From contig JBBRUX010000045.1 of the NCBI GenBank assembly GCA_038247415.1, forward strand, positions 1 to 31,247: a stretch of 31,247 nucleotides of DNA, in the 5' to 3' direction. The position numbers were made by a program, and so were the translations under genes. The notes beneath the pieces were generated by a model. It saw nothing but the letters and a program-made list of their open reading frames with translations. It searched no databases and was not told the DNA's origin. This document shows positions 26,810 to 31,247 of this stretch, piece after piece. Every line of letters begins with the position of its first letter. Position 1 is the first letter of the stretch. This stretch comes from Chitinivibrionales bacterium. GTDB taxonomy: Bacteria > Fibrobacterota > Chitinivibrionia > Chitinivibrionales > WJKA01.

Positions 26810-27517
26810 TTACCTTAATGCTGTGTTAAGTTTTACCGAAAATTCCTGTCGATCAGCCGAAAATGCTGGCGGTAAGCTTGAAAAGGGTGCAGCCTGATTA
26901 ACTGCATTCATAGCTAAATTATCTACAACGGTAGATCCAGCCGATTCACTTACCACAACCTCCGAAATGGTGCCATTCTGAAAAATGGTAAATGCCACGG
27001 TTACTGTCACATCTTTTTTTTGCGAAGGAGGTTGCCATTTCGATTCGATTTTAGATTGCACATACATTAAATAGGCGTTGAACCGAAATTTCCCCACAGC
27101 AGACACCTGCGCTGGTGGCGGAATTTCGTTGAGCAAACTGCTCAATTCATCAAGATTTTCCTGTGGTGGCGGCGGTTCGCGCTGCTCAACCTTTTCTGGT
27201 TCTGCTTTTTTAGAGTCCTTGGTTTTCTGAGCTGCTGGTTTTGGTGCTGGTTTTGGTTTTGCCGGTGCCTGTGCAGTAGCTTTGGCAGCAGGCTGCGGCG
27301 CTACAATCGGTGAGGGTGGTGTTGGTAGTCGTGGTGGAGCAACAAGTTGAAATGCTTGAGGGCGCTCGTAGACAACCTTGCGATTAAGCAAATGTGTTAG
27401 CAAGGGAACAACACCTGCAAGAAATAAATGCAGCGTGAGCGATATAATAATGAATGGAACAAGCGCCGAATCGTCGGGTTTGCGAAGTGCCTGCATGCCT
27501 GACGATTCATCGCTCAT
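26810..27517 (-). CDS. tolA: TolA/TonB-family energy transducer
   Basis: TM with SLTLH motif, Pro/Ala/Lys-rich linker, and TonB-type C-domain (KIESKWQPP..SAGSTVVDNLAMNAVNQAAPFSSLP). Lies between tolR and tolB. Confidence 0.8.
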   Translation of the reverse strand: MSDESSGMQALRKPDDSALVPFIIISLTLHLFLAGVVPLLTHLLNRKVVYERPQAFQLVAPPRLPTPPSPIVAPQPAAKATAQAPAKPKPAPKPAAQKTKDSKKAEPEKVEQREPPPPQENLDELSSLLNEIPPPAQVSAVGKFRFNAYLMYVQSKIESKWQPPSQKKDVTVTVAFTIFQNGTISEVVVSESAGSTVVDNLAMNAVNQAAPFSSLPPAFSADRQEFSVKLNTALR

Positions 27518-27518
27518 T

Positions 27519-27929
27519 TCAAATCCTGCCTGTCTTATCAAGAGGTTGCGTTAAAAAACCTAGCTTGACAGCCCCCGCATTTTGAATATCATTGATAAGA
27601 CGCACGACAAGGCCATAAGGAACCCTTTTATCCGCATTTAAAAAAATAGGAGTCTTTACTTTTCCGGCCAAAACTTCTTTAAACCTTTTCCCAAATTCAA
27701 GGAGTGACGTTTTTTCCTGATCGATGTAGATCTCATTGCGAGCGTTGACAGATACCTGAATGTACTCGTTGACTTCTACATTTTCCGATTCAGCTTTGGG
27801 CAGATCAACCTGCACGCCTTGCGTCATCATGGGGGCTGTAATCATGAAAATAATCAGTAACACGAGCGTAATATCAACCAAGTTTGTAATGTTGAGATCG
27901 GCAATCAGACGCCGTTTTGCGCGGCGCAT
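27519..27929 (-). CDS. tolR: TolR/ExbD family protein
   Basis: LNITNLVDITLVLLIIFMITAPMM..VDLPKA..NADKRVPYG. Confidence 0.92.
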   Translation of the reverse strand: MRRAKRRLIADLNITNLVDITLVLLIIFMITAPMMTQGVQVDLPKAESENVEVNEYIQVSVNARNEIYIDQEKTSLLEFGKRFKEVLAGKVKTPIFLNADKRVPYGLVVRLINDIQNAGAVKLGFLTQPLDKTGRI

Positions 27930-28669
27930 CAGAGAACCTTCCCGCTTTGTCCTGCTTCTCCTTTATTTCCGCCATACAAAAGCGACATCATCTCGCGTTT
28001 GAGTCGAGAAAGAGCAGTTTCCTTGAAATCATCGAGATCCTGCTCGATGCGCTCCACCTTATGAATGAGATAATTATAGAAAAAGACTGCCGGGATGGCT
28101 ACCGCAAGACCCATCGCCGTGACCACCAAGGCCTCTGCAATACCCGGAGCAACCACAGGAAGACTTGCAGACCCTTGATTTCCAATTTCAAAAAAGGAAT
28201 CCATAATTCCCCATACGGTTCCAAACAAACCAATAAAGGGGGCAACGCTTGAAATAATCGCCAGAAAAAACACACCACTGTCAAGCTTCGCAGTAAGCAA
28301 AGCCGTTGCATTTTCGAGCGATTCCTTTGCAAGAGAAAATTGATTTTCGATAAAAAACGACCAGTCTTTTATACCGGTATACGATTGTGCATCCCCCAAG
28401 ATTCTTTTAAATTCAAAGGCTGCTACCCTACCCAGTTGCGCCAGAGGAGTATCTCCTGAACTGAGAGCAGGACTATCAAACTCGACAATTGTTTTAACGG
28501 AAGCCGAAGCTATCCGAAACCGTTTGTTCTGTTTCTTGACAGAATGCAGATACACGATCTTTCGGATGATGATACCCCAGGTAACCACCGATAAGACAAC
28601 AAGCATTGCTACGATAGTGCGGGCAATCCAACCAGACCGAAGTATCATATGAAACACCGGAGATTCCAT
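27929..28669 (-). CDS. tolQ: TolQ/ExbB/MotA family protein
   Basis: APFIGLFGTVWGIMDSF..VAPGIAEALVVTAMGLAVAIPAV; TGATG coupling with tolR. Start is 28669 (ATG) or 28684 (TTG). Confidence 0.93.
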   Translation of the reverse strand: MESPVFHMILRSGWIARTIVAMLVVLSVVTWGIIIRKIVYLHSVKKQNKRFRIASASVKTIVEFDSPALSSGDTPLAQLGRVAAFEFKRILGDAQSYTGIKDWSFFIENQFSLAKESLENATALLTAKLDSGVFFLAIISSVAPFIGLFGTVWGIMDSFFEIGNQGSASLPVVAPGIAEALVVTAMGLAVAIPAVFFYNYLIHKVERIEQDLDDFKETALSRLKREMMSLLYGGNKGEAGQSGKVL

Positions 28670-28921
28670 AGCATCCCTTTCCAAAAGTTAATTAACCGTT
28701 TTTCGTTTTAAATACTATCTAACCCTAAAAATATAAATTACGTGTAAGAATTACGATTTGGCAATCCGAATCTTCATTTCTAATATACTTTTTTTATGCG
28801 CTCGTGGCTTTGGCTAAAGAATCTGCATTAAATGATGTATTTTCTTTTAAACTGTGTAGTCGTGCAATTGTGCACGTGAAATATTTCTTCTACGGTTGAT
28901 TTTATAAAGAAGGCACACCTT

Positions 28922-29848
28922 ATGCGGTATTACGACCAAATACATTTCGACATGCCCCCCGTGATGCTGGCGGCTTGGCCGGGGATGGGCAATGTGGGGC
29001 TCATTGCAATGGATTACCTAAGGAAAGCTCTTGGTATGCAGGTTTTTGCAGAACTTGATATGAGTCCTTTTTTGGCACCCGATTCCATTAGTGTTAAAGA
29101 TGGTATTGCACAGCATCCCGAAATGCCAACAAGTCTCTTCTTTTACCGCAAAGAGCCCAATCTCATTATTTTTATCAGCAATGCACAGGTATCTGGACGG
29201 GATGGCATTACCGTAATAAAAACTATTCTCGATGTTGCAAGCCAATTTCAGGTAAAACGATTATTTACTGCGGCTGCCTTTGCACAACCAATGAGCTACC
29301 AAACACCTTCCAACGTATTTGCGGCCTGCTCTAATGAATCATTACTTAATCTCCTTATGGAGTTTGGCGCAACTTCAATGCCCGATGGCTACATCGCGGG
29401 GCTCAATGGTTTGGTTCTTGGGGTTGCAGCACCTCGACACATTGAAGCAGCCTGCCTCTTAGGAACAATTCCTTCATATGCCACAGCCCTCACCTATCCA
29501 AAAGCCTCTCTAGAAATTATCCGTTTAATCGGCAATCTTTTTTCCTGCGATATCGCAACCGAAGATCTCGAAACAGTTGTTGCCGAAATGGATACCCAAC
29601 TAGAAGCCATAGAGGAGCGCATAAAAGAATTTTTCCCAACTATCAACGAGGAGCACGAAGGAACCGATGAAATAGAGGAAGACAAAGTCCCGCATTATAT
29701 CATGGAAAAAATCGAAAAACTCTTCGGAAAAGTTAGTGCCGATAAAACGGTTGCCACCGAACTTAAAAATGAATTGGTTCGTTGGAATATCTATGAACTC
29801 TATGAAAAACGCTTTTTAGACCTTTTTAAAGAATCAAAGGACGAGTAA
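28922..29848 (+). CDS. PAC2 (proteasome assembly chaperone-like) family protein
   Basis: PVMLAAWPGMGNVGLIAMDYL, GYIAGLNGLVLGVA, AACLLGTIPSY..YPKAS are typical PAC2-family motifs. C-terminal helical extension. Confidence 0.8.
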   Translation: MRYYDQIHFDMPPVMLAAWPGMGNVGLIAMDYLRKALGMQVFAELDMSPFLAPDSISVKDGIAQHPEMPTSLFFYRKEPNLIIFISNAQVSGRDGITVIKTILDVASQFQVKRLFTAAAFAQPMSYQTPSNVFAACSNESLLNLLMEFGATSMPDGYIAGLNGLVLGVAAPRHIEAACLLGTIPSYATALTYPKASLEIIRLIGNLFSCDIATEDLETVVAEMDTQLEAIEERIKEFFPTINEEHEGTDEIEEDKVPHYIMEKIEKLFGKVSADKTVATELKNELVRWNIYELYEKRFLDLFKESKDE

Positions 29849-29853
29849 CGAGT

Positions 29854-30255
29854 ATGTCAAAAATTGTTGTATCAAAAGGGCAAACCGAAGCGGCACTGTG
29901 TGAAGCAATCACCAAATTCGAAAAAGAATATATGGGACGAGGCCCTCTGGAGACAAAAACGACCATATTCGATAATATTGTTTTGATTCGCTTAAAAGGG
30001 ATCCTAACAAAGGCAGAGTTTCGACTTGCAAGCTTCGATAAAAATGGCAAAGGAAGAGATCTCATAAAACAAGTTCGAACTGAACTGATAGAAAATAATA
30101 GGCCGATACTCGAAGCGATCATTAAAACTATTACGCGTCGCAAGGTTAAAAGCCTCCATACCGATATATCTACGGTAACCGGTGAAAAGATCATAGTTTT
30201 TATTGTCGATCGGCCTTTTGAGTTTGCCAATTCACCCTCCTCAAATGTATCTTAA
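29854..30255 (+). CDS. DUF2294 (MpsC/YbcI-like) family protein
   Basis: KGQTEAALCEAITKFEKEYMGRGP, RLKGILTKAE, GRDLIKQVRTELIE, SLHTDISTVTGEKIIVF match the DUF2294 signature. Confidence 0.88.
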   Translation: MSKIVVSKGQTEAALCEAITKFEKEYMGRGPLETKTTIFDNIVLIRLKGILTKAEFRLASFDKNGKGRDLIKQVRTELIENNRPILEAIIKTITRRKVKSLHTDISTVTGEKIIVFIVDRPFEFANSPSSNVS

Positions 30256-30258
30256 ATA

Positions 30259-30325
30259 TCCCTGAAGGGGAGGGGAAGGCACAGTGTGCTAGCCATCTTC
30301 CAAGCAGGGAATGATCCTTTTTTTT
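30259..30325 (+). terminator. Structured hairpin after the DUF2294 gene, possible terminator
   Basis: Nested stems TCCCTG/CAGGGA, GGAAG/CTTCC and GCAC/GTGC. A T8 run starts 7 nt after the stem, so the geometry is imperfect. Confidence 0.45.
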
Positions 30326-30385
30326 AAAAAGCTGCGTTTTCAGTCCTCTTTGAGACGTATTTATGCGGAGCAGAGCAGGAAGGGC

Positions 30386-30452
30386 GACCAGGAAGTGCTT
30401 CCAGGAACAGAATTCTGAATTCCTGAAAACGGTATTTCTGGTCTTTTTTTTT
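30386..30452 (+). terminator. Intrinsic terminator in the pckG upstream/leader region (candidate attenuator)
   Basis: Outer stem GACCAG(G)AAGTGC/GTATTTCTGGTC and inner stem CAGGAA/TTCCTG, followed immediately by T9. Ends 55 nt before the pckG ATG. Confidence 0.8.
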
Positions 30453-30507
30453 GATAAACGCTGCAAAGACATTCGATAATTAACATTGAACTTGTAAAGG
30501 AATCATC

Positions 30508-31247
30508 ATGGCTCATCAGAAATTGCAATCGTGGGTTTCGGAAGTTGCACTCCTCACACAACCAGATACAATATATTGGTGCGATGGATCAGTGCAGGAA
30601 TACGATGCGATGATAAAAATCATGGTTGATGGCAAACTTGCCACACCACTTGCGAAACGCCCCGGAGGATACCTCTTCAGATCCGATCCTTCCGATGTTG
30701 CTCGCGTAGAAAACCGTACCTACATTGCTTCTAAATCCAAAGACGCTGCTGGCCCTACCAATAACTGGATCGATCCCGAAGAACTTAAAACAACCATGCG
30801 GGGCCTGTATAAAGGCTGCATGAAGGGCCGTACACTGTACGTTATCCCCTTCTCGATGGGGCCTGTAGGATCCACCATTGCAAAAATTGGCGTTGAAATC
30901 ACCGATTCTCCTTATGTCTTTGTCAACATGCATATCATGACTCGTGTGGGCAAAAAAGTTCTGGATATTTTAGGCGATACGGGCGAATTTATCCCGTGTC
31001 TTCATTCAGTCGGAAAGCCTTTGGCCGACGGCGAACAAGACAATGGCGTTTGGCCATGCGCCCCAATCGACAAGAAATACATTTCTCATTTCCCCGAAGA
31101 GCGTACTATTTGGTCGTATGGCTCTGGGTATGGTGGCAATGCACTTCTTGGAAAAAAATGCCTCGCGTTACGCATAGCATCGTCTGTTGCACGTGATGAA
31201 GGCTGGCTTGCAGAACATATGCTCATTCTTTCTATTACAAATCCTGC
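30508..31247 (+). CDS. pckG: Phosphoenolpyruvate carboxykinase (GTP), 5' part
   Basis: Not in the ORF track because it has no stop in the window. [109 protein letters not shown]. Confidence 0.97.

Follow-up and report, generated by a model that had tools for sequence, protein, structure and literature searches.

At the right end of the stretch analysed here, a complete contig of 31,247 bp from a Chitinivibrionales bacterium (Fibrobacterota) that we refer to as the window, lie three co-oriented genes, namely, a PAC2-family gene, a DUF2294/MpsC gene and the 5' part of pckG, which encodes GTP-dependent phosphoenolpyruvate (PEP) carboxykinase (PEPCK). The region between the DUF2294 gene and pckG contains an RNA element whose core, at positions 30337-30454, belongs to a conserved leader RNA family uncatalogued in Rfam 15. 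On comparative sequence evidence the element is a real, conserved and predicted attenuator leader of pckG, paired with DUF2294. We consider it fairly probable that this leader is read through with the help of a factor, most likely the DUF2294 protein of the subfamily denoted a-type, in response to a signal linked to inorganic carbon. The genome to which the window belongs amounts to 3.84 Mb and is 96% complete.

Conservation and structure of the leader RNA

In 40 relatives, pckG or accD lies downstream of a DUF2294 homologue on the same strand, with a spacer of 200-500 nucleotides (nt) in between. Common to these spacers are a promoter-like element, a hairpin between AUCA-AG and GGAAGUGA, and a terminator of conserved sequence, GRCCAAAGAA...UUCUCUGGUC followed by U7-10. 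The stem of this terminator keeps its sequence from family to family, as plain terminators seldom do. The resulting family consensus reads ..AUCA-AG..[stem]..GGAAGUGA-GGNCC.., and differs from the motif GCAGG-N2-3-GGCGACCA that a first-pass annotation, made from the sequence of the window alone, had put forward as the candidate site of action. The latter motif has one match genome-wide, the window itself, and was dropped as a defining motif; GGCGACCA alone occurs 62 times in the genome.

Using RNAalifold on a seed of 16 core sequences, we obtained a structure composed of a closing pair (P0), an internal loop, a 5-bp stem P1 with apical stems, and the terminator, with compensatory changes at 18 of the 23 pairs. 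A covariance model built from the relatives (R1, trained on Fibrobacterota only) recovered the window copy at 30337-30454 with 59.2 bits (E 1e-10) as the sole strong match in the 3.84-Mb genome. For 65 sequences from several phyla, 87.6% of the cells pair, compared to 39-53% with slid partners, and double changes are found at 23/23 model pairs; the covariation score is 0.549 versus 0.11-0.16, a value reached by 0/500 shuffles, in an alignment that was fitted to the model and so leans towards structure. The P1 pairs have 6-31 doubly changed sequences each, and all 11 terminator pairs show compensatory changes. Across phyla only the core, that is, the hairpin with internal loop and the terminator, is common, the 5' domain being lineage-specific. 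Reading the internal loop as a kink-turn was considered by eye and not kept.

Searches against Rfam 15 gave no credible match at E <= 10 for positions 29700-30700. For 19 loci of relatives, searched at E <= 1, only tRNAs were retrieved; the 13 loci searched in other phyla yielded tRNAs and, outside the leader, two chance matches below threshold, and nothing else.

The features at the right end of the window are as follows (minimum free energy is abbreviated MFE, free energy dG and amino acids aa):

28922..29848, + strand: PAC2-family gene (Pfam PF09754, E 3.8e-33)
29854..30255, + strand: DUF2294/MpsC gene, a-type subfamily, 133 aa (Pfam PF10057, 126.2 bits, E 7.7e-37, residues 8-120)
30224..30253, + strand: promoter-like TTGCCA-18-TATCTT, within the 3' end of the DUF2294 gene (consensus scan, 9/12 matches)
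30259..30310, + strand: 5'-domain hairpin, the 'first hairpin' (dG -28.4 kcal/mol, z -2.9, 0/200 shuffles as good)
30318..30325, + strand: internal U8 (T8) run, 7 nt beyond the 5' hairpin (from sequence)
30332..30341, + strand: 5' strand of the candidate antiterminator (P0 plus extension), partner 30383-30391 (constrained fold; homologue folds)
30337..30454, + strand: conserved core, comprising P0, internal loop, P1 and apical stems, purine linker and intrinsic terminator (covariance model R1)
30340..30384, + strand: P0/P1 hairpin with conserved internal loop (model alignment, MFE folds)
30375..30390, + strand: purine-rich segment GCAGGAAGGGCGACCA, overlapping the terminator 5' arm (from sequence)
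30386..30452, + strand: intrinsic terminator, GACCAG..CTGGTC at 30386-30443 plus U9 at 30444-30452 (dG -23.6 kcal/mol, z -3.2)
30451..30480, + strand: sigma-70-like TTGATA-18-GATAAT downstream of the terminator (10/12 matches)
30496-30502, + strand: Shine-Dalgarno-like AAAGGAA (from sequence)
30496..31245, + strand: 5' part of pckG including the Shine-Dalgarno-like sequence, ATG at 30508, gene cut by the contig end (PEPCK_N, 328 bits, E 2.8e-98)

The 252-nt spacer (30256-30507) as a whole folds better than its shuffles (z -3.77). The promoter-like element at 30224-30253 aligns with the conserved CTTGC..TATCTTTA preceding the leaders of relatives, and the GGAGGGG-hairpin-UAGCC inside 30259-30310 aligns with their 5' domains. 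The leader transcript thus probably starts near 30260 and would span to about 30452. The first hairpin and its T run had initially been taken for a terminator; the alignment of this hairpin with the 5' domain of the relatives' leaders, downstream of the conserved promoter-like element, speaks against such a role. The U8 run itself is a peculiarity of the window genome, with unrelated sequence at the aligned place in relatives, and does not represent a conserved terminator tail.

Within the core of the window copy, P0 is formed by 30340-41/30383-84, P1 by 30345-51/30372-79 and the apical stem by 30356-58/30365-67. The purine-rich segment at 30375-30390 consists of the P1 3' strand, the 3' side of the loop (AAG), the P0 3' strand (GG), a linker C and the base of the terminator 5' arm, and aligns with the conserved GGAAGUGA-GGNCC of the family; its overlap with the terminator arm, as pointed out in the first-pass annotation, is directly visible in the sequence. 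At 30386-30452 a stable stem is directly followed by a U tract, as is typical of intrinsic terminators. A consensus terminator scan of the region returned 0 sites, the loops of both hairpins being above its 8-nt limit. Coordinates, Pfam matches and folds agree with the initial description of a DUF2294 gene followed by two hairpins with T runs, the T9 run ending 55 nt before the pckG ATG.

The terminator of the window is about 25 nt longer than that of any relative and holds in its loop an inner hairpin with a GAATTC palindrome (30402-30425). In addition, a near-perfect 9-nt inverted repeat (30331-30339/30457-30465, GCTGCGTTT/AAACGCTGC, one mismatch) brackets the core and the terminator. This repeat pairs in the MFE fold of the full spacer, and its formation is possible only after read-through.

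Genes behind the leader and its link to DUF2294

R1 matches (E <= 0.01) are present in 48 of the 81 genomes of the order. Genomic contexts were counted for the 51 matches of at least 27.7 bits, leaving out five weaker ones (L026, L001 and second matches in L073, L068 and L049). All but one of these 51 copies are located directly upstream of, and co-oriented with, a gene for PEPCK (34), AccD (13) or FabD (3); the remaining match (L081, 29.6 bits), inside an open reading frame (ORF) and without a target gene, is likely a false positive. Two genomes (G007 and G015) have three copies each, before accD, pckG and fabD. The distance from the end of the match to the start codon is 12-140 nt. About half of these spacers are shorter than 47 nt, which is too short for a promoter and a 5' untranslated region, so the gene there must be reached by read-through of the terminator. 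A same-strand DUF2294 gene is found less than 700 nt upstream of 35 of the 50 leaders; the genomes with the other 15 hold DUF2294 at another place, and these leaders have their own promoter-like element. Taken together, the comparisons support the view that the RNA is a cis-acting leader of a small regulon and not a chance terminator, and we have little doubt that it represents a conserved cis-acting terminator leader.

Two alternative explanations should be considered in the light of these contexts. According to the first, the hairpins are ordinary terminators at the end of the PAC2-DUF2294 operon, while pckG is transcribed from a separate promoter at 30451-30480, where the sigma-70-like TTGATA-18-GATAAT lies just downstream of the T9 run. 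Such terminators are hardly expected to have a stem and a preceding hairpin that are conserved and covary across families and phyla, to follow a promoter-like element that is conserved upstream of the first hairpin, or to recur as identical leaders before pckG, accD or fabD without a same-strand DUF2294 gene within 700 nt (15/50). We therefore regard this explanation as highly improbable. According to the second, the element is a small RNA gene in its own right, about 190 nt long, whose product acts in trans, perhaps jointly with DUF2294, and which lies before pckG by coincidence. The upstream promoter-like element and the strong downstream terminator would fit such a gene, and the promoter-like match between terminator and pckG could drive pckG separately. 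That match is a consensus match only, in a region where the promoter scan gave 6 such matches against 1.9 expected, and neither the short spacers nor the placement of 50/51 copies directly upstream of three gene classes in the same orientation would be anticipated for an RNA acting in trans. A small RNA gene is accordingly very unlikely, if somewhat less so than ordinary terminators.

The association with DUF2294 extends well beyond the order. Among 80 DUF2294 loci in named public genomes from several phyla, 56 have a same-strand RNA starting 96-367 nt after the gene (by label, 22/27 Fibrobacterota loci and 34/53 other loci), two more have matches further away and 22 lack any. DUF2294 together with the RNA occurs in Fibrobacterota, Planctomycetota, Desulfobulbia/Thermodesulfobacteriota, Nitrospiraceae, Hydrogenedentota and others. 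Outside Fibrobacterota, the genes following the DUF2294-RNA module are (AIR, aminoimidazole ribonucleotide; SAICAR, succinylaminoimidazole carboxamide ribonucleotide):

biotin carboxylase (AccC): 1 locus
carbamoyl-phosphate synthase large chain (CarB): 1 locus
AIR carboxylase (PurE-type): 2 loci
SAICAR synthetase (PurC): 4 loci
archaeal-type PEP carboxylase: 2 loci
gamma-carbonic-anhydrase-like hexapeptide protein: 2 loci
NhaD antiporter: 1 locus
divergent second DUF2294 gene, once followed by pckG (GTP-PEPCK): 3 loci
unclassified 590-615-aa family with P-loop: 8 loci
unassigned ORF: 7 loci

Together with PEPCK and AccD, most of the assignable downstream genes encode enzymes of reactions that consume or release CO2/bicarbonate; the use of CO2 or bicarbonate by these enzymes is established biochemistry. 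An R1 match inside an ORF for an EAL-HDOD protein (L177) is likely a false positive.

The commonest gene behind the module outside Fibrobacterota encodes the unclassified 590-615-aa family, which has a highly conserved P-loop, GDTAAGKSE (loci L128, L133, L097, L162, L149, L126, L160 and L175). Pfam and NCBIfam searches with this family gave only sub-threshold similarity to PEPCK/HprK, and a profile search of the PDB gave nothing. With hhalign, the probability is 67% against DUF4914 and 31% against GTP-PEPCK, in both cases for the P-loop region only.

To what extent does the RNA follow the protein? In a sample of 151 genomes of the phylum, 53 have PF10057; the RNA (E <= 0.001) is found in 35, all of them PF10057-positive, and in 0 of the 98 PF10057-negative genomes, counts which come from related genomes and overstate independence. 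The correlation with DUF2294 proposed in the first-pass annotation holds for the RNA family (35/35 positive, 0/98 negative); the literal motif is not conserved. Weak R1 matches in PF10057-negative genomes were also inspected, and 4/5 are plain terminators without the hairpin. Nine PF10057-positive genomes without an RNA match carry only a paralogue, denoted b-type, which is 63-85% identical to the second DUF2294 copy of the window genome and 51-55% identical to the window copy. The RNA therefore tracks one DUF2294 subfamily, the a-type, and we are inclined to see the a-type protein as the partner of the leader.

The strongest competitor of a protein-dependent switch is a riboswitch that works without protein, in which the core, perhaps with a contribution of the 5' domain, directly recognises an ion or small molecule (e.g. 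bicarbonate or a metabolite of central carbon metabolism) and thereby controls the terminator. DUF2294 would then often adjoin the leader as part of one and the same physiological response, or would belong to the regulon itself. Like riboswitches, the element has several stems, conserved unpaired nucleotides and an expression platform; 15 of the 50 leaders in the order have no DUF2294 gene nearby and carry a promoter-like element of their own; and in L119, L105 and L176 a divergent DUF2294 paralogue lies behind the leader, as though regulation extended to DUF2294 genes themselves. Moreover, a PF10057-negative genome (G044, 93% complete) shows a weak 26-bit match, including a homologous terminator, some 100 nt before pckG, so a terminator-bearing pckG leader can exist without DUF2294. 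On the other hand, a self-sufficient riboswitch would not be expected to be missing from all PF10057-negative genomes at E <= 0.001 and to track the a-type subfamily only, nor to keep a fixed distance downstream of DUF2294 across phyla (56/80 loci) while the regulated gene varies. In addition, what is kept across phyla, a hairpin with an internal loop and a terminator, is more like a protein-binding site than an aptamer pocket. On balance, we find a protein-independent riboswitch unlikely, although it deserves far more consideration than the two explanations discussed above.

The G044 element (L170, G044:C174) has a leader-homologous terminator, GGCCAAAGAGG..CCCUCUGGUC plus U9, before pckG and no recognisable P0/P1 hairpin; judged from its sequence, it may be a decayed or rewired leader. 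A different arrangement is seen at the second DUF2294 copy of the window genome, which is b-type (126.8 bits against PF10057; contig C76, locus L001, 854-1851, - strand) and has a putative carbonic anhydrase gene (Pro_CA_2, E 2.5e-44) 188 nt behind it, and then a citrate synthase gene. Its spacer, missed by R1, has a UAUCAAG-CCCC..GGGG hairpin inside the loop of a GGCCGC..GCGGCC+U5 terminator and gives the impression of a leader relative that is wired differently. Within one family of the order (L025, L026, L027 and L032), genes for DUF4914 proteins (E down to 1e-197) follow b-type DUF2294 genes after 8-340 nt; this, too, is an uncharacterised P-loop family with a link to DUF2294. Elsewhere the b-type gene and a divergent second DUF2294 gene, located 250-430 nt further downstream, form a tandem (G023:C196, G017:C40, G002:C94, G048:C8, G047:C46, G070:C22, G013:C14 and G019:C873), and the gap in such a gene-gap-gene tandem holds a leader in Nitrospiraceae (L119 and L176) and Hydrogenedentota (L105).

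As for the neighbourhood in the window, the PAC2-family gene ends 5 nt before the DUF2294 gene, and the two are probably co-transcribed. A PAC2 homologue is also found directly upstream of a-type DUF2294 in three relatives of the same family (L004, L017 and L021). Full-length PckG homologues behind the same leader carry both PEPCK_N and PEPCK_GTP, and the window pckG belongs to this family. Three adjacent ORFs at 26810-28684 on the - strand resemble, by eye, a TonB/ExbD/ExbB-type (TolA/R/Q-like) energy-transducing cluster.

Switch geometry and a possible mechanism

The consensus structure lets the P0/P1 hairpin and the terminator coexist. In the window, a helix that extends P0 (30332-30341/30383-30391) sequesters GACCAG, the base of the terminator 5' arm. 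When the 3' base of the terminator is blocked, this alternative helix is the optimum, with -32.1 kcal/mol compared to -39.6 kcal/mol for the terminator state, that is, at a cost of 7.5 kcal/mol. Since the terminator state is more stable, termination would be the default, and a factor stabilising the hairpin would give read-through. In folds ending before the 3' arm, the terminator 5' base pairs with the 18 nt before P0 in 45/65 homologues, compared to 26.1 obtained from shuffled flanks. Conservation of this kind points to the helix as a candidate antiterminator. The proposal of the first-pass annotation that occupancy of the 5' element blocks the terminator stands to the extent that an alternative helix can sequester the 5' arm. 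In a fixed register, about 60% of sequences pair, with no covariation. A fixed P0 extension of the form 'UCA/UGA plus GG..CC' was likewise consistent with only about 60% of sequences and is kept as a working idea only.

Based on these considerations, we propose the following mechanism. The leader would be transcribed from its own promoter overlapping the end of the DUF2294 gene. The RNA alone would favour the terminator, and transcription would stop 55 nt before pckG. A trans-acting factor would stabilise the P0 helix and its extension (30332-30341 with 30383-30391), and the stabilised helix would sequester GACCAG, resulting in read-through into pckG. This factor would most likely be the a-type DUF2294/MpsC protein encoded immediately upstream. 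The signal would probably be tied to inorganic-carbon (CO2/bicarbonate) supply or to carboxylation demand, because the family precedes genes for PEPCK, AccD/AccC, FabD, AIR carboxylase, SAICAR synthetase, carbamoyl-phosphate synthase, PEP carboxylase and gamma-carbonic-anhydrase-like proteins. That CO2/bicarbonate itself is the signal is a plausible but tentative suggestion.

The protein of the window is a clear member of its family, the curated cut-off of PF10057 being 23 bits. The a-type DUF2294 is small and about 60% identical across phyla, with invariant Arg/Lys and an HTDxST-GE segment; the window copy shares 52-66% identity with the homologues of relatives and the same 52-66% with those of other phyla. 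The AlphaFold2 (AF2) model is confident (predicted local distance difference test score, pLDDT, 90.2) and displays the order alpha-beta-beta-alpha-alpha-alpha-beta-beta. With regard to kinship with known RNA-binding attenuation proteins (HutP, TRAP, PyrR and the CAT/PRD antiterminators), a Pfam scan detected PF10057 only and no CAT/PRD domain, and a PDB sequence search gave nothing significant. Foldseek against the PDB gave nothing at E <= 0.001, the weak top rows being YslB, Bet3/TRAPP and H-NOX. In a wide VIA-align comparison the best Z was 6.9; RbfA reached 5.8 and V4R 4.4, and none of these values rises above background. An ESM Atlas search with PF10057 excluded returned no usable match. 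Its binding to the leader RNA is putative.

Several observations weigh against the proposed mechanism. At the level of the RNA, only about 60% of sequences pair per position when the antiterminator is held in a fixed register, covariation is absent and the partner CC hardly varies, while the window's own fold ending before the 3' arm picks another partner. The promoter-like match downstream of the terminator may be a local pckG promoter. At the level of the protein, the confident model has no clear relative among solved structures and establishes no known RNA-binding fold; 15/50 leaders in the order lack an adjacent DUF2294 gene, and the leader-like element of G044 goes without one. According to Fan et al. 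2019 (PMC6689103), deletion of mpsC in S. aureus had no growth phenotype. As to the signal, fabD and NhaD do not use CO2. The model-fitted alignment and the relatedness of the sampled genomes, mentioned above, count in the same direction.

A broader and more doubtful extension is that a-type DUF2294 proteins are cross-phylum RNA-binding, inorganic-carbon-sensing antiterminators that govern a 'carboxylation regulon' through one cognate leader, with paralogous subfamilies having their own RNA variants. If true, the regulon would include PEPCK, PEP carboxylase, acetyl-CoA carboxylase subunits, fabD, carbamoyl-phosphate synthase, AIR carboxylase/PurC and gamma-carbonic anhydrase, and the module would be the first circuit in heterotrophic bacteria through which CO2 exerts control at the level of RNA.

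Relation to known systems and implications

By analogy, the leader/DUF2294 module resembles protein-dependent antitermination or terminator-coupled ON riboswitches, with no match to the known families of either in the Rfam, Pfam and structure searches. In the hut operon of B. subtilis, a small regulatory protein, HutP, is likewise encoded at the head of the unit and an intrinsic terminator precedes the regulated genes; the ligand-activated protein is thought to bind RNA near the 5' side of the terminator and to permit read-through. In contrast to HutP, DUF2294 matches only PF10057 and has no clear structural relative, and its RNA is a hairpin with an internal loop instead of spaced UAG triplets. 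Furthermore, the leader has its own promoter-like element and occurs at several unlinked operons, and binding and ligand are only postulated for DUF2294. The BglG/SacY/LicT proteins and their RAT (ribonucleic antiterminator) elements share with our system an internal-loop hairpin whose 3' strand overlaps the terminator 5' arm and whose stabilisation prevents termination, or in our case would prevent it. However, DUF2294 has no CAT/PRD domains, the sequence and shape of the hairpin differ, and the genes concerned encode carboxylation enzymes rather than functions of sugar utilisation. ON riboswitches (fluoride, guanidine-I and the Na+ DUF1646 motif) are similar in that a closing helix competes, or in our case would compete, with the terminator and in their occurrence before functionally related genes in many phyla, whereas the leader lacks an Rfam 15 family and displays a strict phyletic and positional linkage to one protein subfamily.

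The MpsABC/DabAB system of S. aureus, as described in PMC6689103, contains the founding DUF2294 member, MpsC, in a CO2/bicarbonate context, and mpsC is said there to lie behind a 'weak transcription terminator' after mpsB. In the window, by contrast, DUF2294 has pckG as its neighbour and is connected with it through an RNA leader. DabA/MpsB (PF10070) has 0 matches across the 96%-complete genome, which extends the initial remark that mpsAB is not nearby, and no MpsABC/DabAB operon is found there. The same paper describes mpsC as dispensable for MpsAB function in S. aureus; in that light, the linkage of DUF2294 to mpsAB/dabAB assumed by the first-pass annotation appears weak. A full-text literature search, which did not extend to the supplementary motif lists of RNA-discovery papers, found no paper on the leader RNA or on DUF2294 function, and none on a bicarbonate/CO2 riboswitch.

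DUF2294/MpsC has had no assigned function, and a conserved RNA partner with a built-in terminator provides a specific hypothesis for bench work. The leader would add a widespread structured RNA to the catalogue and account for how pckG and the genes of fatty-acid initiation are controlled in Fibrobacterota and in several phyla that have received little study. Among the genes behind the leader are those for acetyl-CoA carboxylase, carbamoyl-phosphate synthase, AIR carboxylase and PEP carboxylase/carboxykinase, and the bicarbonate/CO2-dependent reactions of these enzymes make bacteria depend on CO2 or carbonic anhydrase. We know of no general regulator that matches carboxylation capacity to inorganic-carbon supply, and the module could show how non-photosynthetic bacteria achieve this.

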